Made by a program: the position numbers and the translations under genes | Origin: Candidatus Dojkabacteria bacterium | GTDB taxonomy: Bacteria; Patescibacteriota; Dojkabacteria; B142; OLB20 | Assembly: GCA_035444565.1 (NCBI GenBank) | Contig: DAOMOX010000001.1 | Span: 322,335-386,334, forward strand | DNA: 64,000 nucleotides | Direction: 5' to 3' | Shown here: piece by piece, positions 6,282-62,825 of the stretch | Layout of the letters: the number at the start of each line of letters is the position of its first letter | How positions within the stretch are numbered: the first letter of the stretch is position 1 | The notes under the pieces: model-generated | Seen by the model: only the letters and a program-made list of their open reading frames with translations | Told to the model about the DNA's origin: nothing | Database searches by the model: none

Positions 6282-8387
6282 TTATCTCGCTTTATACTGG
6301 AAATAACCATTACAGTGAAGTAAATCACGAGAATAAAATCCTCCAACACATGCTCCAGCCTCGTTACTCCAAGTGCCTGTTGAAAAGGTATCAGGATCTT
6401 CGGTCTGATAGACAGTAGTTCCAATTGTAATCTTATCTACGTATACGTCCCTCTGAGTACCATCGTTAATAAATTTAATTTTTACCTGAGTTACATCAAA
6501 CGGAACGTTGTGTGTGTATCTATAATTCCCATATGTCGTTCCCATAACATCAAAAGTATGAACTGTAGGCTGTGTTGTTGTAGGATCACCTATTTTAATT
6601 TCTAGTTTCGGCCATACTCCTGATTCACTCCTGGGATATCTAGCCTTAGCTCTCACAATTATGCGTTTTGCACTTGGGTAGGTAGTAGTCGGAACAATTG
6701 TGCCAACTGATGTTGGGATTGGTGTATTATCAGGAGCATTTTCAGAGTTTAATTCAATTGCACCAATATCTGGCATTGATACTCTGGCACTCTTCAAATA
6801 ATCCTGTGATCTAACCGATGTAGGTATACCTGTGTTATTAGAAGGACCAGCACTTGTACCTGCATTTATCGAGATACTATTACTTATTGGATAATAATTA
6901 GCAACATTTACTGCTGTTAATAGCTCACTCAGATTTAAATTGTCTGGTCCAATATTTGGATATTTAATGTTTAAAGGAATCGTAGAATTAACCAATCCTG
7001 GATTATCCTGAAAAACATTACCGGTGCCTTTTATAGAGGTTGATAGTGCCTTAGGAAAAATATTATTACGCACTGTCAGGGCATCATTACCACTTAATTT
7101 GATTGTGATTTTTGATGTTGGGTTTTTTCTTCGATCAAATATGTTATTCTCTAATATTCCACTAACTTTAGGATCCCCACTTTTAGCTGCTTCATGCTGA
7201 ACGCTCAAAAGTGTAGATAATTCATTTCCCGCAATCAATGTGTTGTTTCCAAAATATATTCGATTATTATCGCCTATATGTGATTTATTTGAGCCAGTAA
7301 TAAAAAACCCCATATTTACTATCAAATTATTGTAAATGGCAATGTTTGTATTCATTACATTTCCTGTTTTTAGATGACCCTTTTCATTTCTAAGTCCAAA
7401 CCTCCAAAATCCTGTGGCATCGGTATCCTCATCTCCACCTGCCTTAGGTTTCTTCTCTTCAGGAGCGTAGAAAAGATTATTCCTTACTACTGCATCTTCA
7501 ACCATCCCAGCATAAAAGCTATTTTTGTTTCCAACTACTGTGTTATCTTCAAACAATAAGTCTTTTGAACCGGGCTGGGGTGCTAATTCACCCTCTCCCC
7601 ATGCAAAAGTATTACCTCTAACAACAGAATTCATCCCACCTATGGCTGCACTAATATTTACACAATATTTCAATTCTAATTCACTTAGTGGGGTATCTTT
7701 TGGTTGACAAGCACCTGGTACCCGAACATGATACTCATCTCCCACAGAAGTTCTGGTCATACTATTATTAAGAAATTGAAAATTATCCATTCTTGCAGGA
7801 TAATCACTTTCAGATTCATCAGGATTTGCATACAAACCAGATGAAATCGTCCAGTCAATGATTACATTTTTTACAGTCACATTCTTCATTGTTCCACCAT
7901 TCTCTGTAGAAATTCCCAAACCTCTACCACAAGAGTTTCTTAGGAATAGGCCATCAATAGTTACATTGTTAGTATTCCTTAGTGATAGCAGTGCAGCGAA
8001 TCTTCCTTGTGATGAACACCTACTATTCCATACATTTACAATATTGTCCCAGCTATTATTTAACATTCCAGGCGCAAAACCTCCGTCTATAATAGCTTTA
8101 TGACGATTTTCAGCTTTCCAAGTCAGTCCACTTTTTTCAATTCGAGAATATGCAGGATAAATACCATCTTTGAGAATAATTGTGTCGCCAGGAGAAGCTG
8201 AAGTATCGGCTTTTTTCATGGTTTTCCACGGACTAGTATTTGTACCTGCGTTGGTATCGGACCCATTTGGCGAAAGATAATAGATCGACGCAGCAGAATT
8301 ATCTTCAGGAGCTAAATCCCCCATGAATAAAACTAAATAAACAGACAGAGAAATCACCGATAATACAAGAACTATACCAATAAACAA
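6282..8387 (-). CDS. Secreted right-handed parallel beta-helix protein (DUF1565/pectate-lyase-like) with C-terminal beta-sandwich (possible CBM); paralog 1
   Basis: 701 aa. N-terminal TM/signal. YYLSPNGSDTNAGT...PWKTMKKA...PGDTIILKDGIY start typical of DUF1565 beta-helix proteins. Repetitive N-rich beta-helix rungs. No dockerin-like tail. Confidence 0.6.
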   Translation of the reverse strand: MFIGIVLVLSVISLSVYLVLFMGDLAPEDNSAASIYYLSPNGSDTNAGTNTSPWKTMKKADTSASPGDTIILKDGIYPAYSRIEKSGLTWKAENRHKAIIDGGFAPGMLNNSWDNIVNVWNSRCSSQGRFAALLSLRNTNNVTIDGLFLRNSCGRGLGISTENGGTMKNVTVKNVIIDWTISSGLYANPDESESDYPARMDNFQFLNNSMTRTSVGDEYHVRVPGACQPKDTPLSELELKYCVNISAAIGGMNSVVRGNTFAWGEGELAPQPGSKDLLFEDNTVVGNKNSFYAGMVEDAVVRNNLFYAPEEKKPKAGGDEDTDATGFWRFGLRNEKGHLKTGNVMNTNIAIYNNLIVNMGFFITGSNKSHIGDNNRIYFGNNTLIAGNELSTLLSVQHEAAKSGDPKVSGILENNIFDRRKNPTSKITIKLSGNDALTVRNNIFPKALSTSIKGTGNVFQDNPGLVNSTIPLNIKYPNIGPDNLNLSELLTAVNVANYYPISNSISINAGTSAGPSNNTGIPTSVRSQDYLKSARVSMPDIGAIELNSENAPDNTPIPTSVGTIVPTTTYPSAKRIIVRAKARYPRSESGVWPKLEIKIGDPTTTQPTVHTFDVMGTTYGNYRYTHNVPFDVTQVKIKFINDGTQRDVYVDKITIGTTVYQTEDPDTFSTGTWSNEAGACVGGFYSRDLLHCNGYFQYKAR

Positions 8388-8455: not shown

Positions 8456-10537
8456 TTATAATGCACAACTAGTCTTCGGATAATACCTCTGTGCAAATCC
8501 TATTCCAGCTGCTCCAAAGTCTGCAATATTTAACTTCCCATCTCTATTTACATCTCTTCCTCCACAAGAACCATACTCAACATCTTTATCTGCACAAGTA
8601 TTTTTTCCAGTTCCATAGCTTTTAGCAAATTCTGCAAAGTCAGCAATACTGAATTTTCCATCTCCATCCACATCAGCTTTACCACAGATATTCCCTGTAA
8701 CTGGAAGTGTTGGTGTGGCACTTGGAACTGGTGTCAGTGCATTTGATGGTGTTGGTGTTGTACTTGGAGTAATTGAAGGCCCAGGTGTTCGAGTTAATGT
8801 CGGAGTTAAAGATGCACCAGGTGTTTGAGTTGGCGTCGCGGACTGTATTGGTGTTGGGGTACTGGTGTTATAGACCCCTCCGAACTCTATTGCCCCTATA
8901 TCAGGAGTTCCTGTCCTGGTATTTCTCAAAAAATCTTGCGATCTCACTAATTGTGGGATATTAGTTTGGTTAGCACCAGTCCCATTTGATCCTGTATTTA
9001 TTGCGGGACTATTTTGTTTTAATCGATAATTATTAATGTCTAAAGCAGCCCTTAATGCTGCGATATCTAGTGTCTCAGGTCCGATATTTGGATAAACAAG
9101 ATTCAATTCTATTAATGAGTTTACTAATCCAGGATCGTTAGTATAAACATCTCCTGTTCCTTTAACTGAATTGTCAACATTTGTTGGTAATATATTATTT
9201 CTGCGTAGGAATTGGTCATTTCCACTCAGTTGGACATTAATTCTAGCTGATGGATTCTTTCTTCGGTCGAAAATATTATTTTCCATGATTCCTGTTAACA
9301 CTCCATCACCTGAAGATCCTCCCCCATGCTGGATGTGTAGGAGCGAATCCAGTTCCTTTCCAGCAACCAAAGTATTATTTCCAAAGTATATTTGTCTGTT
9401 GTCCCCTATGTGACTACCATTTGTCCCTGTAATAAAGAATCCCATATTAACTATTAAATTATTATAGATAGCAATATTTGTATTCATTGTAGTGGCCTCA
9501 TCCGTATGCCCCTTTTCATTTCGTAGTCCAAGTCTCCAATACCCAGTGGCCTCACTATCTTCATCACCGCCAGCTTTGGGTTTTTTCAATTCTGGGGCAT
9601 AGAATGTATTATTTCTTGCTATAGCATCCTGTACCATTCCAGCATAAAAACTATTTTTATTTCCAACTACAACATTATTTTCAAATAAAAATCCTTTGGA
9701 CCCTGGTTGGGGAGCCAATTCACCTTCACCCCATGCAAATACATTTCCTCTTATAATTGAATTCACTCCACCAAAAGAGGCACTAATATTGACACAATAC
9801 TTTTTAATCTTTTCGTTCTCAGGAGTCGTTTTCGGCTGACAAGCACCTGCCACCCTGACATTATATTCGTCACCTATAGATGTTCTTGTCATAACGTTAT
9901 CAATAAACTGAAAATTATTCATTTTTGTTTGAAATACATCTTTTTGACTGAAAGCCGGCTCTGCATATATACCCGAGGTAGAAGTCCAATCTATCATCGA
10001 ATTTTTGATGGTAATGTTATTGGCAGTTGCACTTGTTGTAGACGTGGAAACTCCTATCCCTCTACCACAGGAATTCCGTATGAAAAGACCATCAATTGTC
10101 ACGTGATCAGCATCTCGAATAGCCAATAAGGCAGCAAACATCCCTTTGTTTGAGCATTTTGTATTCCAAACTGAAACGATATTATTCCAGTTGTTATTCA
10201 ACATCCCCGGAGCGAAGCCCCCATCAATTATAGCTTTATGCTTATTTTCAGCTCTCCAAGTAACGTTCGATTTCCTAAGGGTGATGTAACCGGAATAGAC
10301 ACCATCTTTAAGAACAACAGTATCGCCAGGAGAAGCGCTTGCATCAGCCTTCACCAAAGTTTTCCATGGACTCGAAGTTGTCCCTGGGTTGCTATCGGAT
10401 CCATTTGGAGATAAGTAGTAAATTGTTGCTGCCGAGTCATCCTCGGGTGACCACTCTTGGAACACTAATAAACTCGAAACCATAAGGACTAGTATCCCTA
10501 TTACTGCTAAAGCTAGTGTAAATACTGGTTTCCTCAT
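8456..10537 (-). CDS. Secreted parallel beta-helix protein with Thr/Pro linker and C-terminal Cys-containing dockerin-like Ca-binding module; paralog 2
   Basis: 693 aa. About 70% identical to paralog 1 in the beta-helix part. C-terminus DVDGDGKFSIADFAEF...DVNRDGKLNIADFGAA has two dockerin-type DxDxDG loops plus 4 Cys. Confidence 0.6.
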   Translation of the reverse strand: MRKPVFTLALAVIGILVLMVSSLLVFQEWSPEDDSAATIYYLSPNGSDSNPGTTSSPWKTLVKADASASPGDTVVLKDGVYSGYITLRKSNVTWRAENKHKAIIDGGFAPGMLNNNWNNIVSVWNTKCSNKGMFAALLAIRDADHVTIDGLFIRNSCGRGIGVSTSTTSATANNITIKNSMIDWTSTSGIYAEPAFSQKDVFQTKMNNFQFIDNVMTRTSIGDEYNVRVAGACQPKTTPENEKIKKYCVNISASFGGVNSIIRGNVFAWGEGELAPQPGSKGFLFENNVVVGNKNSFYAGMVQDAIARNNTFYAPELKKPKAGGDEDSEATGYWRLGLRNEKGHTDEATTMNTNIAIYNNLIVNMGFFITGTNGSHIGDNRQIYFGNNTLVAGKELDSLLHIQHGGGSSGDGVLTGIMENNIFDRRKNPSARINVQLSGNDQFLRRNNILPTNVDNSVKGTGDVYTNDPGLVNSLIELNLVYPNIGPETLDIAALRAALDINNYRLKQNSPAINTGSNGTGANQTNIPQLVRSQDFLRNTRTGTPDIGAIEFGGVYNTSTPTPIQSATPTQTPGASLTPTLTRTPGPSITPSTTPTPSNALTPVPSATPTLPVTGNICGKADVDGDGKFSIADFAEFAKSYGTGKNTCADKDVEYGSCGGRDVNRDGKLNIADFGAAGIGFAQRYYPKTSCAL

Positions 10538-10586
10538 AACTAACGATAATAATTATTAAATATCTAAATTTCTTTATACTTCAATC

Positions 10587-12566
10587 TTATATTGCGCAGC
10601 TTAATTTCGGATAATACCTCTGTGCAAATCCTATTCCGGCTGCTCCAAAATCTGCTATATTTAATTTCCCATCTCTATTTACATCTCGACCACCACAAGA
10701 TCCATATTCAACATCTTTATCTGCACATGTATTTTTTCCTGTTCCGTAACTTTTAGCAAACTCTGCAAAATCAGCAATACTAAATTTTCCGTCTCCATCG
10801 ATGTCTGCTTTCCCACATATATTTCCCGTAATTGGTGGAGTTGGAGTATTTGACGCAGCAAGAGGTGGTGTTGGCTTCAAAGTTAGAGTCGGTGTCAATG
10901 TTGGGGTGGACCCAAGACTTGTAGTAGGTGTTGGTGATGTTTGCACTTGTGTAGCTGTCACCAAAGGCGTAGGAGTACTGGTATTGTATACACCGCCGTA
11001 TTCGACTGCCCCAATATCTGGATTTCCTACTCTACTATTTTTGAAAAAATCTTGTGATTTCGCTAACTGTGGAATTTGATATGTAGTATGAGTTGTTGTA
11101 CTAATGCCTGCATTTATTGCTGGACTCGATTGTTTCAATCTGTAATTATTAAGATCCACAGCTGCACGCAAAGCAGTCATGTCAACAGTTGCAGCACCTA
11201 TTGCAGGTATTGGATAATTCAACTGAACCAATGAATTTTGCAATTCCGGATTCGTTGTATAGATATCACCAGGTCCTTTGGTATTGCTTTGAGCAGAAGC
11301 TGGTAAAATATTATTTCTGAATACCAAGTCATCATTCCCACTCAGCGCTGCTTTAATTGTTGCAGAAGGGTCTTTGCTTACATCGAAAATATTATTCTCA
11401 ATTAATCCTGTAATTTTGGAGTCAGACCCATCTCTGGGTGCAAAAACAATATTAAACAAATCATTTGTCTCTTTACCGGTCACTAATGTATTATGACCAA
11501 AATAAACGTTTGTAGTATTCGACGAATAATCTTTATGGTAACCGGAAAAAAGGAAACTGTTATTAAGTATTATATTGTTATAGTAAGCGACATTATTTAA
11601 TCCTGAGGCATAATTTCCCCAACGAGCATCTTTCTCATTACGTGACGAAATGTGCCAATCGTTCTCGTTACCGTTTTTCTTCTCCCAGTGGGTATTTGGA
11701 TTAAGTTGTGATTCAGGAGCCCAGAAGAGATTATTGCGCACAATCACACCATCGGCCCAACCATTATAAAAATTGTTTTTATTTCCAATAATAATATTAT
11801 CTTCAAATAATAGGTTTCGAGAACCCGTCATTGCAATTTCTCCACGTCCCCAAGCAATGATATTGCCTCTCACTACCATGTCCTCACCACTCATATGAAT
11901 ACTAATGTTTACATTGTAGTCATTGCTTGTATATACAGTATATTGATCGTTAAACGAAATTCTTGTAAGTTCATTATTTATCATCTGCAAACCTTTAGTC
12001 TTTCCAGAAACGTAAAATCCAGATACAAAAGTCCAATCAATTCTATTATTTAAAAACTTCGAGTAGTTAACATTCTCGGCAACTAAAACACCTCGACCAC
12101 AGGAGTTTCGCAAGAATAACCCCTCTACCTCAACATTATCAGCCGAAACCGCTACTAACGGAGACCACATCCCTATATTTTTACATTTAGAATCCCAGGC
12201 TGAAACAATATTCTTCCACTCCCCATTAAGTAAACCAGGTCCAAAACCTCCGTCGATAATCGCTTTATGTTTGTTTTCTGCTCTCCAAGTGGTATTGGGT
12301 TTATTGATATTAAAATATGCGCTATATGTACCGTCTTTCAGGATAACAGTATCTCCTGCAGAGATACTACTCATAGCCTTAGAGATAGTCTTCCAGGGAG
12401 ACGAGTTACTTCCGTTATTAGAATCATTCCCATTTGGGGAGAGATAATATACTGATGCTGCGCTATCGTCTTGTGGTGCCCTATCCTGATAAAACAAGAA
12501 TGCGGTGATTGCCAACAAAAAAATACCTAAGGAAAATAATCCTAAAACTACGGCTTTTTCTCTCAT
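10587..12566 (-). CDS. Secreted parallel beta-helix protein with C-terminal dockerin-like module; paralog 3
   Basis: 659 aa. Same N-terminal YYLSPNGNDSN signature. C-terminal 79 aa nearly identical to paralog 2. Confidence 0.6.
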   Translation of the reverse strand: MREKAVVLGLFSLGIFLLAITAFLFYQDRAPQDDSAASVYYLSPNGNDSNNGSNSSPWKTISKAMSSISAGDTVILKDGTYSAYFNINKPNTTWRAENKHKAIIDGGFGPGLLNGEWKNIVSAWDSKCKNIGMWSPLVAVSADNVEVEGLFLRNSCGRGVLVAENVNYSKFLNNRIDWTFVSGFYVSGKTKGLQMINNELTRISFNDQYTVYTSNDYNVNISIHMSGEDMVVRGNIIAWGRGEIAMTGSRNLLFEDNIIIGNKNNFYNGWADGVIVRNNLFWAPESQLNPNTHWEKKNGNENDWHISSRNEKDARWGNYASGLNNVAYYNNIILNNSFLFSGYHKDYSSNTTNVYFGHNTLVTGKETNDLFNIVFAPRDGSDSKITGLIENNIFDVSKDPSATIKAALSGNDDLVFRNNILPASAQSNTKGPGDIYTTNPELQNSLVQLNYPIPAIGAATVDMTALRAAVDLNNYRLKQSSPAINAGISTTTHTTYQIPQLAKSQDFFKNSRVGNPDIGAVEYGGVYNTSTPTPLVTATQVQTSPTPTTSLGSTPTLTPTLTLKPTPPLAASNTPTPPITGNICGKADIDGDGKFSIADFAEFAKSYGTGKNTCADKDVEYGSCGGRDVNRDGKLNIADFGAAGIGFAQRYYPKLSCAI

Positions 12567-12648
12567 TTGATAATTAGTGAATATATTCAGTTTATTATAA
12601 TATTAATAAATCATCAAATCTTAAGTTACTCTAAAAAGAATGACTCAT

Positions 12649-14976
12649 CTACAATGAACAACTCGGTGCTGGATAGTACCTCTGAGCGAACGCTGAAAAA
12701 TCAGCAATAGAGACTTTTCCATCATTATCTCGATCTATTCCCCCGCAAGGTCCGTGGTTTACACCTCTATCTGAACAACTACTTTTGTATTTTCTTGCAA
12801 AATTAGAAAAATCATACAAATCAAACCTTCCGTTACTATCCAAATCTGCTGGACCGCATACAATTGCATTTACATTTGTGGGTGTAACAGTGGATGGTGT
12901 CACAGAAATACTTGGTCGTGCTGTAGGAGTTGTAGATGTAACAGGCTTAATTGTCGGAGTAACCGAGACATTTGGACTAACCACAGGACTCGAAACAGGG
13001 GTGCTAGGCCTTGGTGTAGGAGTATTAGAAGGAGTTGTGCCCCCAGTCTGCTGAGCCTTTACCATTGCACTATGAGCATTAATTCTCTTCCCTGTTACTA
13101 TTTTTCCAGATAGCGCAGGTAAAGGATCCCCTGTTTCTAAAATAATATTTTGCACTTGTGTGGTAGTCAAACTTGGCTTATAACCCCAAATTAAACCAGC
13201 CAATCCGACGACGTGGGGAGTAGCCATAGAAGTTCCTTGAAAAAATTCATATTTATTACTCATTCCATCAGAGTAATGAGCAATATTTAAATCCTCGATG
13301 AAACAGCCCATGTATACGTTATCGGCTGCATTTGTATTCCATACAAACCGTAGTCTCATGTTCTCAGTTAAAAATTTTTGAGAAACTGGCACACTATCAA
13401 AATAATATTGAGATACTCCACTCTCGAGTGTATCCCCGGTTAACGCATCTAGAACATGTTCGTTCCATCTAAAGGCAAAGGTTGGAGCACCTGGGAAAGG
13501 TATAGACTCGAAGTTGATACCATCCGCACTCATTTGTAATTCAATATTATCCCATGGTTCAACTGAATCATATTCCGTATCACACAAGGCAACAAAACTT
13601 ATAGAAGCATTATTCTTTTTCAAGTTTGCTTTTGGAGATGTAATATAGTTATTCGCTTGATTGGTATATGGGGGTGCATCCTTCTCTGTTTTTAATAAAT
13701 TCCCAACAGATTCATCTAGGTATAAAGTTCCCCATTTAGGGTTTGTGCCTCCTGTAGTCCATCCTGTCGGCAAAGCAGGTGCTTGTGCATTATTAAAGTT
13801 TTCATCCATCAATTTCTCATGTGAGACAGAACTATAGATTGATTGTCCAGGAGCTGCTATATCAACACGGCCTAATCCATAATCAGAGAAATCCGCCAAA
13901 CTATCGTTTTGGTCTGTTGCAGCTACGCAAATAATATTCGCCGAGTCGTAGTCACAAGGATATCCACTCAAGGTGTTATGATCCCTATTTGAATTTCCAG
14001 CCGATGCAACGAATAATCCAGGGTATGCCTCTATAGCCTGTTTCATTGCATAGTCATACGAAGGACCTCCAAAACTAGCATTAATAACTTTTGCACCATT
14101 GTATTTGGCAAAATTAATAGATTTGACTATTCCTATAGATGTTAATTCTGTCTTTATTGCCATAATTTTGGCATTTGGTGCAACCCCCACTATTCCATAG
14201 TTGTTATTCTTGGCGGCAGCAATAGTACCTGCAATATGTGTTCCGTGTGAAGAATTAGTAGGCAATGGAATTTTATCGTTGTCTTCGAAATCATAACCAT
14301 ACATACATCCACCTAATGTTTGATTGTTTTCATTTTTACAATTCTGTCCATTCCACATATTTGCCTTTAAGTCAGGGTGGTTATAGGCAACACCCGTATC
14401 TATAACTGCGACAATAATTTCACCATTTATCCCTTCATTCACTGCCCAAGCCTCAGGCGCATCGATATCGGCATCCGCTACAGACGGACTCCCCTCTATC
14501 ACTTGACCAGAATTGTGTAAACCCCAAAGCTTGTCTTTATCGGGATCGTTTGTATTTATTGAAGCATACCTGTAGATATAGTTAGGCTGAACGAATTCAA
14601 CATTCTCATCTAATTTCATTTCGTTAATAATTTCATCAACATTTCTATCAGTTCTAAAGAGTTGCACATTTGAGGATAAATCAGCGTCAACATCTCTAAC
14701 TTCATGCTTATTCATAAACATCCACAGCTTAGGAGCAACCAAGGAAGATTGTAGATTGATTTTTTCCTTTTTATATTTAACAATAAATTCTCCAGGTACA
14801 ACATTTAGGTCTGTATCCTCCGAAATAGATTCTGTTGGAGCTTTTGCATTAACATCGTCAATACCTGCACTATAATTCCCAGGTGAGAAATCTCTAAATA
14901 TAAAATAAGTCGCTACACCTACTACTATTAGGAGGAATAGCCCTAGGGAGAACATTATTCGAACTGCTGTTTTCAT
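12649..14976 (-). CDS. Subtilisin-like serine protease (peptidase S8) with I9 propeptide, Pro/Thr/Ser linker and C-terminal dockerin-like module
   Basis: 775 aa. Catalytic triad motifs DTGVAYNHPDL, HGTHIAGTIAA, GTSMATPHVVGLAGL. C-terminal CGPADLDSNGRFDLYDF...DRDNDGKVSIADFSAF shows the same Cys/dockerin pattern. Confidence 0.8.
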   Translation of the reverse strand: MKTAVRIMFSLGLFLLIVVGVATYFIFRDFSPGNYSAGIDDVNAKAPTESISEDTDLNVVPGEFIVKYKKEKINLQSSLVAPKLWMFMNKHEVRDVDADLSSNVQLFRTDRNVDEIINEMKLDENVEFVQPNYIYRYASINTNDPDKDKLWGLHNSGQVIEGSPSVADADIDAPEAWAVNEGINGEIIVAVIDTGVAYNHPDLKANMWNGQNCKNENNQTLGGCMYGYDFEDNDKIPLPTNSSHGTHIAGTIAAAKNNNYGIVGVAPNAKIMAIKTELTSIGIVKSINFAKYNGAKVINASFGGPSYDYAMKQAIEAYPGLFVASAGNSNRDHNTLSGYPCDYDSANIICVAATDQNDSLADFSDYGLGRVDIAAPGQSIYSSVSHEKLMDENFNNAQAPALPTGWTTGGTNPKWGTLYLDESVGNLLKTEKDAPPYTNQANNYITSPKANLKKNNASISFVALCDTEYDSVEPWDNIELQMSADGINFESIPFPGAPTFAFRWNEHVLDALTGDTLESGVSQYYFDSVPVSQKFLTENMRLRFVWNTNAADNVYMGCFIEDLNIAHYSDGMSNKYEFFQGTSMATPHVVGLAGLIWGYKPSLTTTQVQNIILETGDPLPALSGKIVTGKRINAHSAMVKAQQTGGTTPSNTPTPRPSTPVSSPVVSPNVSVTPTIKPVTSTTPTARPSISVTPSTVTPTNVNAIVCGPADLDSNGRFDLYDFSNFARKYKSSCSDRGVNHGPCGGIDRDNDGKVSIADFSAFAQRYYPAPSCSL

Positions 14977-16605: not shown

Positions 16606-16964
16606 TGAAACTTAAGAAAAAGCTTGGAAAACTGAAATTTGAATTAAATTTGACACGATTTCAGGTTTTTGGCGTTATCACCTGGATTTTTTTAATTCTG
16701 GTTTTACCTATTTCAATAGATTTGTATTCAAAATATAACGCTACAGAAGCCAATGGTTCTACACAAACTCAGAACAGAGTTGCTGGAGCAGCAACAGAAA
16801 GTGATAATCCATTCACATATACAGTTAATCTAGAAGACAAAAAAGAACTCGTATCTACCCTCACCATGGTTTTTGGTGGTATTTCTACTGTGATAGCTTT
16901 GGTCAGCCTCGTTTTATTATTCAAAGAGAATAAAAAAGAACGCACAGGTGTATTTATCAACTAG
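16605..16964 (+). CDS. Small membrane protein, hypothetical
   Basis: 119 aa. Two hydrophobic segments. No recognisable family. Confidence 0.3.
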   Translation: MKLKKKLGKLKFELNLTRFQVFGVITWIFLILVLPISIDLYSKYNATEANGSTQTQNRVAGAATESDNPFTYTVNLEDKKELVSTLTMVFGGISTVIALVSLVLLFKENKKERTGVFIN

Positions 16965-17223
16965 GAAAATTCATTATTATATTGAGGCAACCGTTAGCTC
17001 CGTAGAGCCGATGGGTTCGTTTACCTTGGTAAGGTTTGGGAAGCGTCATCTCGCGAAACCTCCTTCTGAATGTTTATTACAAGAAGGACAGAAAGTAGAA
17101 GTCACTATAGATCCGTACAAGAATACACTCATTAATATTGCGTCAGTAACATGTACAAGGTGTCCGTTAAAAGGGAATGCGTGTAGATATGGGATTGAGG
17201 GTTATAAAAGTAAACCTCTATGA
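16948..17223 (+). CDS. Small Cys-motif protein (paralog A of a tandem triplet), hypothetical
   Basis: 91 aa. Shares ...C.L.EG..V.V.I......L...AS..C..CP... pattern with the two following ORFs. Confidence 0.4.
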   Translation: MYLSTRKIHYYIEATVSSVEPMGSFTLVRFGKRHLAKPPSECLLQEGQKVEVTIDPYKNTLINIASVTCTRCPLKGNACRYGIEGYKSKPL

Positions 17224-17304
17224 ATCTACCGTAACTTCAGCCTCCGATTGACCATTTGACACTGATGATGTATTATCGCAATTAATAATTAACTCTAAAT
17301 AATA

Positions 17305-17562
17305 ATGGGAGAAGATATCTATACAGTATGTTCTATAAAATTTAACCCAAATACTAGGCGAAATGATGTTGAATTTGAGGGTGGATTCACCTCGGACACA
17401 GCAGAAGGTTGTACGCTTAATCCAGGAGAGCAAGTGGGAGTACCTATTCAAATCGATGTGCGAACAGTATTATTTAAATCTGCTGCTGAAGCATGTCAGT
17501 CATGCCCTGTTTTTGATGAATGTGGGAGAGGCTTGATAGGCTCTTATCCAGAAACTGTATAA
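17305..17562 (+). CDS. Small Cys-motif protein (paralog B)
   Basis: 85 aa. GCTLNPGEQVGVPIQID...AAEACQSCP aligns with A and C. Confidence 0.4.
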   Translation: MGEDIYTVCSIKFNPNTRRNDVEFEGGFTSDTAEGCTLNPGEQVGVPIQIDVRTVLFKSAAEACQSCPVFDECGRGLIGSYPETV

Positions 17563-17611
17563 TTTAAAGATCTTAATCAGTTAATATAATTACCTTTGTT
17601 AAATTAATACT

Positions 17612-17845
17612 ATGGCTTTCGAATTTCAGACAGTAACTGCAGTGATGAGAACTCCATCGAATACGCAAGTTCAAATATTGGAAGGTTATTCAGGTGCCAC
17701 TACGCCAGACGGCTGTATCATGGAAGAGGGAAAAATTTTAAAGGTCAAGTCCCCAATAAAGCACGTACTTGTTCAATTCGCCTCAGCAGCATGTAAAAAC
17801 TGTCCATTATTGGATGATTATACAGTAGGAAGTGTTCTCAGATAA
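17612..17845 (+). CDS. Small Cys-motif protein (paralog C)
   Basis: 77 aa. GCIMEEGKILKVKSP...ASAACKNCP aligns with A and B. Confidence 0.4.
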   Translation: MAFEFQTVTAVMRTPSNTQVQILEGYSGATTPDGCIMEEGKILKVKSPIKHVLVQFASAACKNCPLLDDYTVGSVLR

Positions 17846-28639: not shown

Positions 28640-29788
28640 ATGCTTGTTAAACCTCAATCAACCAGTTTTGCGAAAATAAAAGTAGTAGGAGTTGGTGGTG
28701 CTGGCGGAAACGCTATAAACAATATGATCAAAAATCACGAAATTGAAGGCGTTGAATTCATTGCTGTAAATACAGATGCACAGGTACTCGCAAGCAACAG
28801 CGCAGAGATCAAATTGCGAATCGGAGAAGAGATTACAAGAGGCTTGGGTAGTGGAGGAAACCCTCAAATCGGGAGAAAAGCTGCTGAAGAGTCAGTCGAT
28901 TTACTACATGAACATTTAGCTGGTGCTGATATGGTTTTCATTACCGCCGGTATGGGTGGTGGAACTGGAACTGGTGCCTCTCCAGTAATTGCCGGAATTG
29001 CAAAAAATCTAGGTGCACTTACAATTGGAATCGTAGAGAAACCCTTCAATTTCGAAGGTCGAAGAAGGATGGAGACCGCAATACAAGGTATTGCAGAAAT
29101 TAAAGACAAAGTCGACACACTAATCGTTGTTCCCAATCAAAGATTACTTGATGTAATCGAAAGAAACATTTCTTTCATGGAAGCTATGAAAAAAGTTGAT
29201 GACGTCCTTGCTATGGCTGTTAAAAGTATTTCAGAACTTATCACTCAAGGAGGAATGATCAATGTAGACTTCGCGGATATTAAATCAATTATGTTAAACG
29301 CAGGGACAGCTTTGATGGGAATGGGTGTTGCTAGTGGTGAGGACAGAGCCAAAGAAGCCGCTAAAATGGCCATGGAGAGCCCCCTTCTCGAGGCTTCGAT
29401 AGAAGGTGCCACTGGAGTGCTCTTTAACATTTTCGGAGGCGATGACCTAGCAATGTACGAGATTGATGAAATTGCGAGAACTATCTCAGAAGTGGTTCAC
29501 CCTGATGCAAATATTTTCTTTGGTGCAAATGTTGACCCGTCTATGGACGAACAGTTACAGGTAACCGTCTTGGCAACTGGATTTGATACGAACAACCAAG
29601 GTATTCCTGTGCCCGCCGCACAGCCTAAACCAGTTCAAGAAGCTCCACGTAGTCCTGTTAATCCTATTAGAACACAACCTACAAAACCATCTAAACCAAT
29701 TTTTGACGACGATGACGATGATGATGACTACGATATGGACAGTTTGGAATCTACTCCATCATATATGAGGAGGAAGAAAGAGTATTAA
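28640..29788 (+). CDS. ftsZ: Cell division GTPase FtsZ (ORF opens at 28595; likely start at MLVKPQ)
   Basis: Tubulin signature GGGTGTGASPVIA. IKVVGVGGAGGNAINNMI. Poly-Asp C-terminal linker. Confidence 0.9.
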   Translation: MLVKPQSTSFAKIKVVGVGGAGGNAINNMIKNHEIEGVEFIAVNTDAQVLASNSAEIKLRIGEEITRGLGSGGNPQIGRKAAEESVDLLHEHLAGADMVFITAGMGGGTGTGASPVIAGIAKNLGALTIGIVEKPFNFEGRRRMETAIQGIAEIKDKVDTLIVVPNQRLLDVIERNISFMEAMKKVDDVLAMAVKSISELITQGGMINVDFADIKSIMLNAGTALMGMGVASGEDRAKEAAKMAMESPLLEASIEGATGVLFNIFGGDDLAMYEIDEIARTISEVVHPDANIFFGANVDPSMDEQLQVTVLATGFDTNNQGIPVPAAQPKPVQEAPRSPVNPIRTQPTKPSKPIFDDDDDDDDYDMDSLESTPSYMRRKKEY

Positions 29789-30648
29789 ACAGGATTCGCC
29801 ACTACAACAAATCTATTCGCACTATTACCGTCAGGGTAACACGTGAAAAGTGTGAGAGTATCTTTGCCAATTTCTCCGGTAACTATTGAAACATCGTGAG
29901 GTTGTACAATCTTACTCTTTGCTACTCGATATTTGTATTCTTTTCCTTCCATCTTGACGATTACCTCATCACCAATTTTTACATTCTTTAATTCCGAGAA
30001 GGAAGCAGTTGGATCTTTTGTTCTTTCGTAATAATTTCCAGAAGCGCTATGACCATATATCACAGTATTATTTTTCATATCCGAGATTGGTAAGCCAGTA
30101 CCATTAAAATGTGCTAAACCACCTTCTAAGTAACTGTCATAAATTTCTTCTACTCCACTTTCGACATTTGCTATTACTCGAACGTCTTTAATGCCAAGTG
30201 ACGGAATTGATAATTGGAATTTACCTTTGTATTCATTACTAACTGGATCAGCTAAAAGTTGATTCGTTGCATAGGCTTCGTCTTTTAGCTCTTTAAAGTA
30301 TTCAGCTCCAGGGTTTGAAATGTACTCTGCTCTTGATACGTAGTTTTCGGAAGCAAGAGCAACATTTGTTGTATCGTAATAATCAACTTTTAGTTTTAGA
30401 TATTCTTTAAAATCAGGGAAGAATTGTTGATAAATCATTGTGAATCCCGCCACAATCAGAAAAACAGGAATCAATGCTCCAATGAATTTTGAGTTAATCA
30501 GGAATTCTTGAGTATTACCAACTACAGAAAATACAACATCACCAAGAGTAGTTTTCTTCTTTGGGAAATTATCATAATAATAGATGTTCGCCGAGGCAAC
30601 GGTGCCTACAGAGCGTACGGGGGCTTTAACGTACGAATACAGAGCCAT
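29785..30648 (-). CDS. Sortase family transpeptidase
   Basis: 287 aa. N-terminal TM. TVIYGHSAS (His) and C-terminal TLFTCYP (TLxTC catalytic Cys) motifs. Confidence 0.6.
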   Translation of the reverse strand: MALYSYVKAPVRSVGTVASANIYYYDNFPKKKTTLGDVVFSVVGNTQEFLINSKFIGALIPVFLIVAGFTMIYQQFFPDFKEYLKLKVDYYDTTNVALASENYVSRAEYISNPGAEYFKELKDEAYATNQLLADPVSNEYKGKFQLSIPSLGIKDVRVIANVESGVEEIYDSYLEGGLAHFNGTGLPISDMKNNTVIYGHSASGNYYERTKDPTASFSELKNVKIGDEVIVKMEGKEYKYRVAKSKIVQPHDVSIVTGEIGKDTLTLFTCYPDGNSANRFVVVANPV

Positions 30649-32537: not shown

Positions 32538-33881
32538 ATGAGGAAATTATTTAACGCACTAGTGATTGTGATTTTATTATCGCAAACTGCACTGACTGCA
32601 CACGCACAGGAAATCGAACCTTCCGCCACACCTGTCCCACAAGAGATAATTAATAAAGTGGTTAAGACTACTCCTGCAGACATACTTGTCTCGGGAGTTA
32701 ATAAATCAAACCAGCTTTCAGGTGAAATTGTTGCAGATTTTACAGAAATTCCTCCTAGTGCAGAAGTTCTTGACATTGATTTGATCTTCAATCAGGTCGG
32801 GACAAGTGAAGGCATTATTAAATTATTAAATAAGAGATCCTTTAGCATAATCGATAGCATTTCCTTGGGGAGAGAAGGTATCAAAACAACAACCCGTGTG
32901 GACACAACTGTAAAAGAGTGGATAACTAATCCAGAGAAGAATTTCGGGCTTGTATTTCAGACTAGTGAATTAGGAACTGATAGTGAAGTCACTTTTAGTG
33001 ATATCACATTCAACGTTGAGTATTACCTTCCTGATAGAACCAACCCAGAAATTACAAAACTAGACATAAAAATCGTTGATGCATTTACTACTCAAATTCA
33101 ATGGGAAACCAACGAACCTGTAATTGTGAATGTCAAATACGGAAAGACATCGAATTATGAAAAGGATGTGGCTGGTGAAATAGAGTTTGCAGATTCTGGG
33201 GTGGTGAGATTAACAGATTTGAGTGAAAACATCACCTACCATATGAAATTCTACGCAAAAGACTCTAGCGGAAATACCGCAGAAACAGCGAACACAGTTT
33301 TTACAACAAACAAAGGGACAACTACAAATGCCATCACCGAGGATCAAGCTGTACTCGCACCCAGATTATTAAATTACGAAATAGTCCCAGAAAAAAGCCA
33401 TTACAATGTTGAACTAGCCTGGTCAAAAAGTGAATCTACCAACATCACGGGTTATGTACTATTTCGAAACACTGGAGACGGAGAATATTCAGAATACTCA
33501 CGATTTGATAGTGCCGTTACTAGGTATACTGACACCAAGGCAGAATCGAACACCACTTACAGTTATTATGTTATCGCATATTCTGGTACTGTCCAATCAA
33601 GTCGTTCTCCGGTTGTACAAGTTAAAATCCCTGAGGGTTCGAACGTCTTGGGAATTGATAGTATGTTTGAGAGAGGGAATTCGAATTTAGCAATCTTCTT
33701 TATCTTGTCTGGATTCGCAATATTATTAGGAGTTAGCTACTTTGTCTGGAAAAAAGTCCGCCTCAACATGGCTTATAATGAAAAACTCAACCGACACTCT
33801 AGACTACACAATGTACTACACGACCCTGATTATTATATTAATGGGTACGAAGATTCTGTTATCGAGAAAGTAAGTGACTGA
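32538..33881 (+). CDS. Cell-surface protein with signal peptide, fibronectin type III-like domains and C-terminal TM anchor
   Basis: 447 aa. Signal peptide LTAHAQE. FN3-like segments. Hydrophobic LAIFFILSGFAILLGVSYFVW near the C-terminus. Confidence 0.45.
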   Translation: MRKLFNALVIVILLSQTALTAHAQEIEPSATPVPQEIINKVVKTTPADILVSGVNKSNQLSGEIVADFTEIPPSAEVLDIDLIFNQVGTSEGIIKLLNKRSFSIIDSISLGREGIKTTTRVDTTVKEWITNPEKNFGLVFQTSELGTDSEVTFSDITFNVEYYLPDRTNPEITKLDIKIVDAFTTQIQWETNEPVIVNVKYGKTSNYEKDVAGEIEFADSGVVRLTDLSENITYHMKFYAKDSSGNTAETANTVFTTNKGTTTNAITEDQAVLAPRLLNYEIVPEKSHYNVELAWSKSESTNITGYVLFRNTGDGEYSEYSRFDSAVTRYTDTKAESNTTYSYYVIAYSGTVQSSRSPVVQVKIPEGSNVLGIDSMFERGNSNLAIFFILSGFAILLGVSYFVWKKVRLNMAYNEKLNRHSRLHNVLHDPDYYINGYEDSVIEKVSD

Positions 33882-43085: not shown

Positions 43086-43724
43086 TTGAGAATTTTTAAT
43101 ATGAAAAAGTTATTATTTACGTTTTCACTGGTTGTACTATCTTTATTAGTCCTCCCAACTTCTGTTTATGCCTACACTGTTTCGCCTGATTCTGGATCTT
43201 ATGCTCCTGGTGACGAACAAACAATCGCTATACTTGCTTCCCCTCCAGGAGAAACGTCTACATTACAGCTTAGACTTGCCGTTGTAAATGCTACCATTGT
43301 TCCTGGTTCGATAAATACTTCTGCTGCAGAAGAAAATGGATATCTTTTTATAGGTGTTTGTCCAGACAATACTAAGTATACAACCACAACGCTTTGTATA
43401 GACGTTGCCAAAACGACAGGAATGATTGCAAATGGAGATTTGTTAGGTCAGTTTAAGATTAAATTTAACTCCGGTGTTTCTTCGGCCACACTAGTTACAA
43501 ATACTGAAAATGGTTACTTGATTGGTAGTAGTGTCCAACCAGATGAAGGTAGAGGTCTTGGATCCTACCTTGTTAGCGTAATAAATACACCAACACCTAC
43601 AGATTTGCCAGTAACAGGAATAGAGGATTACCCTGTATTAGTTGTCGCAGGAGGTGTTTTCCTAGTATTCGTTGGAATGGGCTTCTTTATCGTTAGATCA
43701 AGATCACAGAGTTTACAATCATAA
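43086..43724 (+). CDS. LPXTG-motif cell-wall-anchored surface protein (sortase substrate), possible cohesin-like beta-sandwich
   Basis: 212 aa. Signal peptide. C-terminal sorting signal LPVTG + hydrophobic stretch VLVVAGGVFLVFVGMGFFIV + basic tail RSRSQ. Confidence 0.65.
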   Translation: MRIFNMKKLLFTFSLVVLSLLVLPTSVYAYTVSPDSGSYAPGDEQTIAILASPPGETSTLQLRLAVVNATIVPGSINTSAAEENGYLFIGVCPDNTKYTTTTLCIDVAKTTGMIANGDLLGQFKIKFNSGVSSATLVTNTENGYLIGSSVQPDEGRGLGSYLVSVINTPTPTDLPVTGIEDYPVLVVAGGVFLVFVGMGFFIVRSRSQSLQS

Positions 43725-61049: not shown

Positions 61050-62825
61050 CTAAATAGTTTTTTCCGAATGTCTATTTTTGAAAGAATTTACTATCATACC
61101 TAAGAACAGGATTCCCGCTAATCCAATCAACCCAACTCCAACATAAATAACATATTGTGCATTTTGGCTAATTACAGGTGGAATGTTTGCTGTCTGAATA
61201 CGAAGTGTTAATTCGTCAATTATCAACTCCAGTCTATTCTTATCAATTTGGGGGTATAGAATTATTAATTCTTCGTGAGTGAATAATTCTGCACTCTCGA
61301 CCATAGTTTCAATGGCGTCAATTTCGAACTGAGGTGCTTCTAGACCGACTTGTTTACCGTAACTTGTACGTTGAACTGAAGGTGGAGAATCTGGGTCGAG
61401 AGAGGCGATGTGAGTGTAAAAATGATTTAAGTCTCCTCCGATCAATGATGGTCCTGATTCACCCCATGTAACATCAACACTCAACCACTCATTCATTCCT
61501 GGAAGATAGACCTGTACCCATTGATGTGCGTCTTGTTGATTTTCTCCAATTCGAGCATCATAGCCATATCCAAAAGCTGCCCTGGCAGGGATTCCTTGGG
61601 CTCTTGCCAAAGTCAAAAACAAATCCGAATATTCCATACAAACTGCAGCGCCTCCTTGTAGAGTTTTCAACGCACCCTGTCTGTCATTAATTCCAAAGCG
61701 TTTAATATCCGAATAGTCTATAGTGTCTACAATATGCGAATAGTTGGATTCAACAATAGAATAAATATTTGTTTCTTCAGCTTTCAATTCATTTGCTTTG
61801 CTAATTATTTCTGGATTATCAACCTCCCAGAACTCAGCTGGCTGCAAATACTGTGAGAAAATCGTGGAATCGATATCTGAAATTGTACCGCTATTTTCAG
61901 GAGTTGCTTGTACTTCAACTTTGTCGACTTGGGCGTAGCCCTCGATCAGAATTGTTTTATTTTCATGACTAGGAATTTTAAATGTTGCGATTAAGTTCCC
62001 GTCTTCGTCTTCAACAATTTGCTTTGGTAGAGGATCAAAAATTGTATAGAAAACTTTTTGTGTGGTTTCAGCTTCGTCAATATTTCGAGGTATCACTAGG
62101 TGGTATTCATTGGAGTACCCTTTGTTAATGGTGTCCGAAGCCATCACTTCTTGTTTGATGTTGAATTTATAATATTGTGTCTTTCCAATCTGAATCCATA
62201 TTTTGCCTCCCACTAGACTCTCTTGTGAAATCTCATAAACAATAAACTCTCCGTCCGTGGTAGTATTGGCAGGGGAGGGGACTACAAAACCAACATCTCC
62301 GAGAGATTTATTAAGTCTTATTATAGTCTTGTAATTGTAACTAGTAGAATTGCTTTCGAATTGGTAGTTCTCACTAAAACCTGGGGCATATATATCTAAG
62401 AGAGCACCAGTTTTTTTAGTCAGTCCTGTATTGGTGTATTCGATTTTAAATTGTTTCGATTGACCAATACCTATAGATCCGTCATATGGAATGTTGAGGT
62501 CAAGAGTATCAATTCCGGCATCCCCCTTATTGTTTTGAACTAATCTGCCGTCAATAAAACTTTTTGCCGATAAAAATGAAGTAGAAAGCTGATCTGTGTT
62601 TTCACTTAGTACAATTATTTGGAAAGTTTCTGTATTGTCTGAAGATATGAGTCTATTTTGTGAAGCATTCGTGATTTTCCTAGTCTCGGTAATGAAGATT
62701 TCGTTTGGAGAATTAATCTCGTAAATCTTTTCAATTTCTACATTAAAGTCAGCAGCAAATGCTTTTGTTTGAAAGCCAAATAGAAATAATATTGAAAATG
62801 CAATTATGAAAAATGCGCGCTTCAT
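61050..62825 (-). CDS. Transglutaminase-like domain protein with N-terminal signal and C-terminal TM
   Basis: 591 aa. Core AAVCMEYSDLFLTLARAQGIPARAAFGY...DAHQWVQVY...DVTWG (Cys-His-Asp transglutaminase-like fold). Confidence 0.6.
   Translation of the reverse strand: MKRAFFIIAFSILFLFGFQTKAFAADFNVEIEKIYEINSPNEIFITETRKITNASQNRLISSDNTETFQIIVLSENTDQLSTSFLSAKSFIDGRLVQNNKGDAGIDTLDLNIPYDGSIGIGQSKQFKIEYTNTGLTKKTGALLDIYAPGFSENYQFESNSTSYNYKTIIRLNKSLGDVGFVVPSPANTTTDGEFIVYEISQESLVGGKIWIQIGKTQYYKFNIKQEVMASDTINKGYSNEYHLVIPRNIDEAETTQKVFYTIFDPLPKQIVEDEDGNLIATFKIPSHENKTILIEGYAQVDKVEVQATPENSGTISDIDSTIFSQYLQPAEFWEVDNPEIISKANELKAEETNIYSIVESNYSHIVDTIDYSDIKRFGINDRQGALKTLQGGAAVCMEYSDLFLTLARAQGIPARAAFGYGYDARIGENQQDAHQWVQVYLPGMNEWLSVDVTWGESGPSLIGGDLNHFYTHIASLDPDSPPSVQRTSYGKQVGLEAPQFEIDAIETMVESAELFTHEELIILYPQIDKNRLELIIDELTLRIQTANIPPVISQNAQYVIYVGVGLIGLAGILFLGMIVNSFKNRHSEKTI

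Follow-up and report, generated by a model that had tools for sequence, protein, structure and literature searches.

Results

The locus

The window, the 64-kb stretch of Candidatus Dojkabacteria DNA analysed here, carries three minus-strand genes, A, B and C, that share a C-terminal tail (Table 1). A preliminary description had proposed these three open reading frames, and we found them at the coordinates it gave (693, 659 and 775 aa), together with the Thr/Pro-rich linker it had placed before each tail, which spans 55–65 aa and is T/P/S-rich in all three genes. Genes A and B encode PL9/DUF1565-like beta-helix proteins. The gene A product runs from an N-terminal hydrophobic leader through a right-handed beta-helix body, with a Pel9A-like/DUF1565/PelN-like N-cap, to the T/P/S linker and the C-terminal module; gene B is its beta-helix paralog, with linker and module present. 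Gene C encodes an S8 subtilase, in which a leader is followed by a fervidolysin-like prodomain, the protease domain, a T/P/S linker and the module. The bodies of A and B are 50% identical and those of A and C 23%; the corresponding tail identities are 96% and 55%.

A further beta-helix paralog, gene D, had been described as lacking the tail. This is indeed the case, and a CBM60 domain (PF16841, 4.9e-10) occupies the same C-terminal place. In gene D, then, one C-terminal targeting domain has naturally been exchanged for another.

Table 1. Features of the window, in window coordinates.
Feature	Position	Strand	NCBI record	Description
Gene D	6282..8387	-		701 aa; beta-helix paralog, 63% identical to gene A
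CBM60 of gene D	~6381-6620	-		
Gene A	8456..10537	-	HRN85838.1 'hypothetical protein', Ca. Dojkabacteria	693 aa
Module A	8459..8701	-		Residues 613-693; dockerin-type, putatively Cys-clasped; ends SCAL-COOH
Gene A linker	8702..8875	-		~58 aa; Thr/Pro/Ser-rich
Gene B	10587..12566	-	HRN85837.1 'DUF1565 domain-containing protein'	659 aa
Module B	10590..10829	-		Residues 580-659; 96% protein identity to module A
Gene C	12649..14976	-	HRN85836.1 'S8 family serine peptidase'	775 aa
Module C	12652..12873	-		Residues 702-775; shorter variant; ends SCSL-COOH
Sortase	29785..30648	-		PF04203, 7.8e-22; TLFTC active-site motif
Candidate receptor (lead only)	43101..43724	+	HRN85804.1 'hypothetical protein'	207 aa

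A tandem repeat bounded by four cysteines

The module is a tandem duplication, ~75–80 aa in all, of a Cys-bounded F-hand (C-G-x-x-DxNxDGKhxIxDFxxFAxxY...C). As the preliminary description had noted, every tail holds two loop/helix repeats, consisting of two DxDxDG-type loops each followed by IADF or LYDF, and four conserved Cys, which lie at the same places in all three tails and lead to the common end ...RYYPxxSC(A/S)(L/I)-COOH. The predicted Ca loops are DVDGDGKFSIAD and DVNRDGKLNIAD in module A, whose four Cys fall at model positions 7, 37, 47 and 80, and DLDSNGRFDLYD and DRDNDGKVSIAD in module C. A scan of the whole window in six frames for the loop motif returned exactly six loops, all within the three tails, and the module HMM that we built matches the tails with E values of 1e-28 to 1e-30. 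Module C, which is 53–55% identical to modules A and B, measures only 74 aa because it is without two short insertions (GTG and GAAG) found in the other two.

Could a recent duplication account for the near identity of tails A and B? We ruled this out because 32 of 243 nt differ between them, almost all at synonymous positions. Omega is about 0.03, and the module is under strong purifying selection.

Distribution of the module

Word-indexed protein searches recovered only 4–7 short fragments, and a 92-sequence profile did not change this; an exhaustive HMM search was needed. The module is carried by ~280 cluster representatives, and wherever the source is named it is a Ca. Dojkabacteria MAG. 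A related-loci search gave 8 loci. Placement at the extreme C-terminus is almost universal: the module ends within one residue of the C-terminus in 98/114 proteins, and the last Cys stands exactly two residues from the end in 66/114 (the commonest spacing), commonly as CxL-COOH and often within a terminal ...SCxL-COOH. Across the family, the linkers contain 20% T, 14% P and 12% S. Module genes are often arranged in tandem arrays whose cargo is heterogeneous. Across the family, the tagged proteins include lyase-like beta-helices, subtilases, trypsins, protease inhibitors and adhesin-like proteins with FG-GAP and propeller domains. Further modules were not found in the 10-kb flanks past both window edges, and a search for a processing enzyme linked to the module arrays gave no candidate.

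Class assignment

Is the tail a type-I dockerin, as initially proposed? The repeat architecture supports this part of the proposal. The module shows the PF00404 layout of two tandem repeats of ~22 residues, each an F-hand without an entering helix, made up of a 12-residue loop and the helix after it, and column statistics over 92 tails agree with this loop-helix arrangement. The fold supports it as well: in the predicted structure (AF2, pLDDT 96), DSSP assigns loop-helix units only and the module adopts the dockerin three-dimensional fold; a Foldseek search of the model against the PDB returned nothing significant. Membership by profile score holds in part, with isolated tail A above the PF00404 gathering threshold (24.8 bits, threshold 22.9) and isolated tail C below it (15.4 bits). 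Full-length window proteins scored 18.8 and 17.8 bits, and gene C gave no match. Family-wide, PF00404 matched 66/92 isolated tails at E<=0.01 and only 15/72 full-length carriers at E<=1e-3.

Among NCBIfam models, NF041540 ('GC-type dockerin domain-anchored protein') comes closest, with 62/92 family tails matched at E<=0.01 (best 7.6e-7). The alignment opens at the first Cys and covers nearly the whole model (positions 1-56 or 1-63 of 67). Isolated window tails scored 20.6 and 18.4 bits, below the curated cutoff of 29; the module is related to this family and falls outside it by the curated score. The term 'GC-type dockerin' did not turn up in a literature search.

Other Ca-binding repeats were considered. 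The thrombospondin type 3 repeat, which had been named in advance as an example of an unrelated repeat, was rejected: with PF02412 and bacterial TSP3 profiles, none of the window tails matched at E<=1, and 1/92 family tails matched at E<=0.01. In sequence searches, EF-hand entries of both Pfam and the PDB scored about as high as dockerins, or slightly higher. Although EF-hand profiles score on the loops, a calmodulin-like EF-hand pair, with an entering helix per loop, was rejected on the predicted structure. We conclude that the module is a divergent, lineage-specific dockerin variant with four invariant Cys.

A candidate partner

One window protein, HRN85804.1, is a possible receptor. Behind a signal peptide it has an all-beta domain of ~145 aa in which two Cys are invariant; a short PT linker then leads to a sorting signal (LPVTG, a hydrophobic segment and RSRS; LPVTGIEDYPVLVVAGGVFLVFVGMGFFIVRSRSQSLQS). 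This is the layout of an LPXTG sortase substrate, with LPXTG, hydrophobic segment, basic tail and a sortase in the same window that would attach the protein to the wall. TIGR01167 scored 15.0 bits against a cutoff of 15.9, and UniRef lists a homolog under the name 'LPXTG cell wall anchor domain-containing protein'. We looked for cohesin likeness by sequence in Pfam (E<=10), in NCBIfam, by phmmer and profile searches against the PDB, and by hhalign against CipA cohesin-2, all with negative results; the likeness is a fold hint only, from a single-sequence predicted structure. No Pfam cohesin was found in ~84 kb (window plus flanks), nor any LPXTG protein or Pfam cohesin in the 10-kb flanks past both edges.

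Discussion

Dojkabacteria are uncultured, ultrasmall CPR bacteria with reduced genomes, which may live freely as polymer degraders or may be epibionts. Cellulose-degrading bacteria use a dockerin tag to hang enzymes on their surface. What could the module do at the end of Dojkabacteria enzymes? We consider it somewhat probable that a dockerin-type, Cys-reinforced tail docks the enzymes and the subtilase on a shared surface partner. The proteins would be exported by Sec via their N-terminal hydrophobic leaders, with the long T/P/S linker as an extended spacer. The C-terminal 75–80 aa, two tandem F-hand units that arose by internal duplication, would fold around two Ca2+ ions and be locked by two disulfides. 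C1, at -3 before loop 1, would bond C4, two residues from the C-terminus, and C2, after helix 1, would bond C3, at -3 before loop 2, as an inter-repeat bridge. Through their near-symmetric helix faces (IxDFxxFAxxY in both repeats), the modules could then bind a single partner common to all of them, which is most likely a surface protein. Docking would keep the beta-helix enzymes, active on pectin/hemicellulose, together with the subtilase at or near the ultrasmall cell surface.

The closest known system is that of the type I dockerins (PF00404; e.g., PDB 2vn5_B, 2ccl_B, 5nrk_B and 2ozn_B). Unlike these, the Dojkabacteria module has four invariant Cys bounding each repeat, a characteristic helix motif (DFxxFAxxY) and a conserved end (...RYxPxxSCxL-COOH), and it is missed by standard Pfam annotation of full-length proteins. 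Four such Cys in dockerins were not described in the dockerin literature searched. Dockerins have an 'intramolecular clasp': one of the three residues that precede the first Ca loop (-3 to -1) touches a C-terminal residue, and this contact stabilises both the Ca-bound fold and the face that binds cohesin (Slutzki et al. 2013, PMC3821032). C1 and C4 of the Dojkabacteria module sit at exactly these positions. In the clasps known so far the contact is non-covalent (aromatic stacking, hydrophobic contacts or a salt bridge), whereas the C1–C4 bond would be a covalent version and C2–C3 would add a symmetric second clasp. Both mentions of disulfides in a 2025 review concern engineered systems (PMC12484212).

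Single wall-anchored cohesins display dockerin-tagged enzymes directly on the cell in R. flavefaciens (ScaE) and C. thermocellum (OlpA/OlpC) (PMC12484212). By analogy with these sortase- or SLH-anchored proteins, the LPVTG beta-sandwich protein is the best candidate partner, and the logic would be the same if it is a cohesin. The Dojkabacteria case differs from cellulosome systems in that a scaffoldin carrying several cohesins or a CBM was not seen, and in that the organism belongs to the CPR and has a reduced genome, unlike the cellulolytic Firmicutes. Taken further, Dojkabacteria would run their own minimal cellulosome-like display, in which a highly divergent sortase-anchored single cohesin (the HRN85804.1 family) holds enzymes, proteases, inhibitors and adhesins on the cell surface, each tagged with a dockerin that two disulfides clasp, and the pair lies outside known types. 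Such a system would provide a handle on what Dojkabacteria cells attach to or eat; in this specific form we hold the proposal to be speculative and improbable. Within the Patescibacteria, SEML1_0315 of the Saccharibacterium Southlakia epibionticum is a dockerin-domain cell-envelope protein with a proposed surface role (PMC10633639). The likeness, compared by description, lies in a dockerin-type domain on an envelope protein, and neither a Cys clasp nor enzyme arrays are reported there.

Alternatively, the module may be an orphan that works without a cohesin, binding a non-protein ligand directly (glycan of plant or host cell walls, for instance, or the cell's own wall polymer), like a Ca-dependent CBM or adhesion module, and targeting the enzymes to substrate or host cell. 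We regard this as possible, if rather unlikely. In gene D, the Ca-dependent CBM60 stands in exactly the place of the module, after the same kind of linker, and the adhesin-like cargo and the negative Pfam cohesin search point the same way. The authors who described an essential Saccharibacteria dockerin-domain protein speculate that it targets host glycans (PMC10633639).

Strict C-terminal placement and the near-terminal Cys could also suggest a sorting or processing signal instead of a reversible plug, comparable in function to a T9SS CTD or to an exosortase/archaeosortase signal, with this Cys as the attachment or processing site. The name of the closest NCBIfam model and a sub-threshold choice-of-anchor Q match upstream of the module in genes A and B (22 bits vs 25) favour such a signal. 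However, the tail is without a transmembrane or hydrophobic segment, the proteins already carry Sec-type leaders, no processing enzyme is linked to the arrays, and the module is a compact domain with a confidently predicted fold whose invariant Cys are even in number and symmetric, as expected for intramolecular bonds. We regard a sorting signal as very unlikely. Least probable of all is a generic EF-hand pair that senses Ca2+ or stabilises the enzymes and has no part in targeting, a reading favoured by the EF-hand scores in sequence searches.

One conserved C-terminal tag marks much of the secreted arsenal of Dojkabacteria. Because full-length Pfam annotation misses most copies (15/72 detected), the tag offers a simple sequence rule for listing this arsenal, and the module is a small (~75 aa), confidently modelled bait for receptor or ligand pull-downs. 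Cellulosome research knows clasp stability as a requirement of dockerins; those with natural disulfide clasps would satisfy it in a new way and could serve as designer-scaffold parts. Should the LPVTG protein prove to be the receptor, the known range of cohesin-dockerin display would come to include the CPR, through a cohesin whose divergence puts it beyond the reach of current profiles.

Results

Three genes of the window, A, B and C, end in a common C-terminal domain (the module, or tail; the remainder is the body) of 74–80 residues, with two DxDxDG-type loops, four cysteines and the terminus ...FAQRYYPxxSC(A/S)(L/I)-COOH. The preliminary description had reported these tails and a Thr/Pro-rich linker before each, and both were recovered, the linker as a Thr/Pro/Ser-rich stretch of 55–65 residues. 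Scanned for the loop motif in all six frames, the 64-kb window contains the six loops of these modules and no others. Routine annotation names the three proteins "hypothetical protein", "DUF1565 domain-containing protein" and "S8 family serine peptidase" (NCBI), and the precomputed Pfam calls are Peptidase_S8 or Pel9A-like and nothing else. In A and B, the N-terminal cap gives matches to profiles for Pel9A-like beta-helix, DUF1565 and PelN; its matches to PDB entries of a rhamnogalacturonan lyase and of pectin methylesterases are weak. Gene D, the paralog described earlier as tailless, indeed has no module; a CBM60 takes its place. D thus shows, inside one gene cluster, a natural exchange of one C-terminal targeting domain for another, with a Ca-dependent CBM60 replacing the dockerin-type module.

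Features of the window discussed in the text
Feature	Position	Strand	Description
Gene D	6282-8387	minus	beta-helix paralog, 63% identical to A; without module
CBM60 of D	~6381-6620	minus	PF16841, 4.9e-10; after linker, C-terminal slot
Gene A	8456-10537	minus	693 aa; hydrophobic leader, right-handed beta-helix body, linker, module
Gene B	10587-12566	minus	659 aa; hydrophobic leader, right-handed beta-helix body, linker, module
Gene C	12649-14976	minus	775 aa; S8 subtilase, fervidolysin-like prodomain, linker, module
Small paralogs	16948-17845	plus	three tandem ORFs (91, 85, 77 aa), 24-29% identical; invariant Cys common to all three, C...C-x-x-C-P pattern
Sortase gene	29785-30648		PF04203, 7.8e-22
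fn3 protein	32538-33881	plus	secreted, 447 aa; signal peptide, fn3 domain
LPVTG candidate	43101-43724		signal peptide, ~145-aa all-beta domain, short PT linker, sorting signal
Transglutaminase-like protein	61050-62825	minus	secreted, 591 aa; signal peptide, transglutaminase-like core (PF01841, 1.7e-17), C-terminal TM segment

What is the tail? When isolated tails were scanned against Pfam, they matched EF-hand_1 and Dockerin_1 (A, 24.8 bits for a gathering score of 22.9; C, 15.4), Dockerin_1 being sub-threshold in the full-length proteins. The NCBIfam model NF041540, "GC-type dockerin domain-anchored protein", aligned over nearly its full length, starting at the first cysteine, with a sub-threshold 18–21 bits (cutoff 29). 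In single scans of 92 family tails (E<=0.01), Dockerin_1 was matched by 66 (best 8.1e-9), EF-hand_1 by 57 and the GC-type dockerin model by 62, and the family profile aligned over both repeats with solved dockerins (4fl4_A, 1.9e-5; 2y3n_B, 2.4e-5). Tail A was modelled with AlphaFold2 from the alignment of 92 sequences; the model was very confident (mean pLDDT 96, pTM 0.85) and consists of loop-helix units; a Foldseek search of the PDB gave no significant structural match to the module. A close relative already has the database name "dockerin type I repeat-containing protein". We conclude that the tail is, as first proposed, a dockerin-type module, of a divergent subfamily overlooked by routine annotation. 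Two other identities were considered and rejected: a thrombospondin type 3 repeat, the contrary case raised in the preliminary description (TSP_3 matched 1 of the 92 tails), and a calmodulin-type EF-hand pair (the model has no entering helices).

An exhaustive search of 1.84 billion cluster representatives with a six-sequence profile HMM returned 280 proteins at E<=1e-3, 66 of them at E<=1e-10. The 155 matches listed include 114 whose complete module ends no more than 15 residues from the C-terminus; 98 of these 114 modules lie within one residue of it and 110 have exactly four cysteines, the last most commonly two residues from the end (CxL). In the 92-tail alignment, invariance is limited to the four cysteines and to the Asp residues at loop positions 1 and 12. 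Both halves of the module obey one pattern, C-G-x-x-D-x-N-x-D-G-K-h-(N/D/T)-I-x-D-F-x-x-F-A-x-x-Y-...-C, and therefore derive from internal duplication of a Cys-bounded loop-helix unit. Six relatives (P0050, P0051, P0055, P0061, P0078 and P0094) carry 3–10 such units in tandem, separated by C-x(9-11)-CG spacers and not confined to the C-terminus. These sequences suggest that a wider Cys-stapled repeat exists, of which the module with two units is one form.

The published structures of dockerins have in common a non-covalent "intramolecular clasp", which joins one of positions -1 to -3 before the first Ca loop to a C-terminal residue and stabilises the Ca-bound fold and cohesin binding (PMC3821032). 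In the module, the first cysteine (C1) lies at -3 of loop 1 (C-G-K-A-D1) and the last (C4) two residues from the end of the chain. The two-fold pseudo-symmetry of the fold places C3 at -3 of loop 2 and C2 behind helix 1. The model of tail A has isolated beta-bridges at 9, 35-36, 49 and 74, beside the four cysteines, and the canonical loop-loop bridge at 18/57-58. From cysteine positions, pseudo-symmetry and modelled bridges we infer two disulfides, C1-C4 and C2-C3. Whereas the known clasp is non-covalent, that of the Dojkabacteria module would be a disulfide, with C2-C3 as a second bond. In the short variant C just three residues lie between helix 1 and C2, which makes the alternative of intra-repeat pairing (C1-C2 and C3-C4) sterically less likely there. 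Neither cysteines nor disulfides are mentioned in the paper on the dockerin clasp (PMC3821032), and a 2025 cellulosome review mentions disulfides solely for engineered systems (PMC12484212).

Tails are better conserved than bodies, both between A and B (96% versus 50% identity) and between A and C (55% versus 23%). Over 80 codons, the A and B tails differ by 27.2 synonymous and 4.8 nonsynonymous changes (dS 0.93, dN 0.026, omega 0.028), and thus purifying selection on the tail is very strong. The bodies show saturation at synonymous sites (pS 0.74) and a dN of 0.435; the tail was probably homogenised between the two paralogs after their bodies had diverged.

In related genomes, module-bearing genes stand in tandem arrays whose cargo is unrelated: five genes in a row in Dojkabacteria HKST-UBA15 (L006) and six in GCA_021463645.1 (L001/L007), the latter encoding an FG-GAP/VCBS protein, an unknown, a rhamnogalacturonase-type fold and a beta-helix gene with a split-off module. 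In this last gene (L001 8430-10426), the beta-helix (508 aa) is out of frame with linker and module (141-aa ORF, P0005), and the frameshift recurs in four independent assemblies, GCA_021463645.1 and three from Logan (L002-L004). Judged from sequence, this reproducible frameshift may mean that the gene is a pseudogene, that the shift is programmed or that the module stands alone. Among 72 carriers, a Pfam census found beta-helix/NosD, S8, trypsin, DPPIV, FG-GAP, beta-propellers, Kazal inhibitors, TcdB-like regions and a GH5 cellulase. Full-length carriers are enriched in T/P/S in the 40 residues N-terminal to the module, and 57 of 77 have an N-terminal hydrophobic leader.

Behind this leader, at residues ~25-40, A, B and D share the motif [SA]P-x-[DE/N]-D/x-SAA (SPEDDSAA, APQDDSAA, APEDNSAA), which is looser in protease C (SPGNYSAG) and also occurs in 6 of 82 module carriers, distant ones included. 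It may be a lineage-specific signal-peptidase site or sorting motif. Just outside the window, in L016 (19720-20964; record ERZ773355 NODE_6, the contig that contains the window; ~10 kb past window position 1), two adjoining signal peptidase I (Peptidase_S26) genes lie near parAB and may be relevant to the processing of these unusual leaders.

The cohesin-like partner anticipated in the preliminary description was sought and not recognised, though a lead emerged. Pfam Cohesin was absent from the secreted and unknown ORFs of the window and from precomputed annotation to 10 kb past each edge, and the module HMM found no further copies in these flanks. The lead, the LPVTG candidate, has two invariant cysteines in its all-beta domain, and its C-terminus, LPVTG-hydrophobic-RSRS, amounts to a full sorting signal for sortase. 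In other metagenomic Dojkabacteria the protein is conserved at 73–78% identity, together with the sorting signal and the neighbour downstream; one homolog is named "LPXTG cell wall anchor domain-containing protein" in UniRef. For a homolog (P0194), the sortase (P0215) and two module carriers (P0008, P0089) the longest contig given is in each case 457,515 bp, presumably one and the same. Sequence methods detected no relation between the candidate and cohesins, and its single-sequence model was poor (pLDDT 49.4, pTM 0.50, last 43 residues unmodelled); whether its fold is cohesin-like is an evenly balanced call. That it is the receptor of the module is a hint only, and on the whole unlikely. If it were, its closest analogues would be the sortase-anchored cohesin ScaE of R. 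flavefaciens and OlpA/OlpC of C. thermocellum. Among the typical cargo that dockerins carry in cellulosomes are PL9 lyases and S8 proteases (PMC12484212).

Discussion

What does the module do? We lean towards a Ca-dependent, disulfide-clasped dockerin acting as a putative common docking tag. An orphan dockerin that binds glycan or a host surface directly is favoured by both the CBM60 swap in D and the lack of a recognisable cohesin, and we consider it a credible if somewhat doubtful alternative. The strict C-terminal CxL end and the "choice-of-anchor" and "anchored" NCBIfam neighbours suggest a sorting or processing signal, which is very unlikely; the lack of any hydrophobic segment in the tail and the compact fold of the module speak against it. 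A plain EF-hand sensor, which the structure speaks against, is hardly credible here.

Already known are dockerins, non-cellulosomal ones included, and proteins of Patescibacteria with a dockerin domain; an envelope protein with such a domain is reported to be essential in a cultivated Saccharibacterium (PMC10633639). New here are the invariant four-Cys double clasp, with its inferred pairing, and the ...SCxL end at the extreme C-terminus. Also new are the use of the module throughout the lineage, on arrays of heterogeneous secreted proteins of Dojkabacteria, and the candidate for a receptor anchored by sortase. It is rather improbable that a CPR bacterium has a minimal display system of cohesin and dockerin in which the cohesin has diverged beyond recognition.

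Window proteins are identical to Candidatus Dojkabacteria MAG entries (including HRN85836-HRN85838), and two GTDB representative MAGs among the related loci are labelled "uncultured Candidatus Saccharibacteria". All source names obtained for module carriers, close or distant, are Ca. Dojkabacteria, and therefore the module looks like a hallmark of this lineage of CPR/Patescibacteria. Potential for polysaccharide degradation is reported for Dojkabacteria of digesters and sludge (PMC7038595, PMC10031880). As docking tags, the tails would retain and co-localise secreted enzymes on one shared cell-surface partner.
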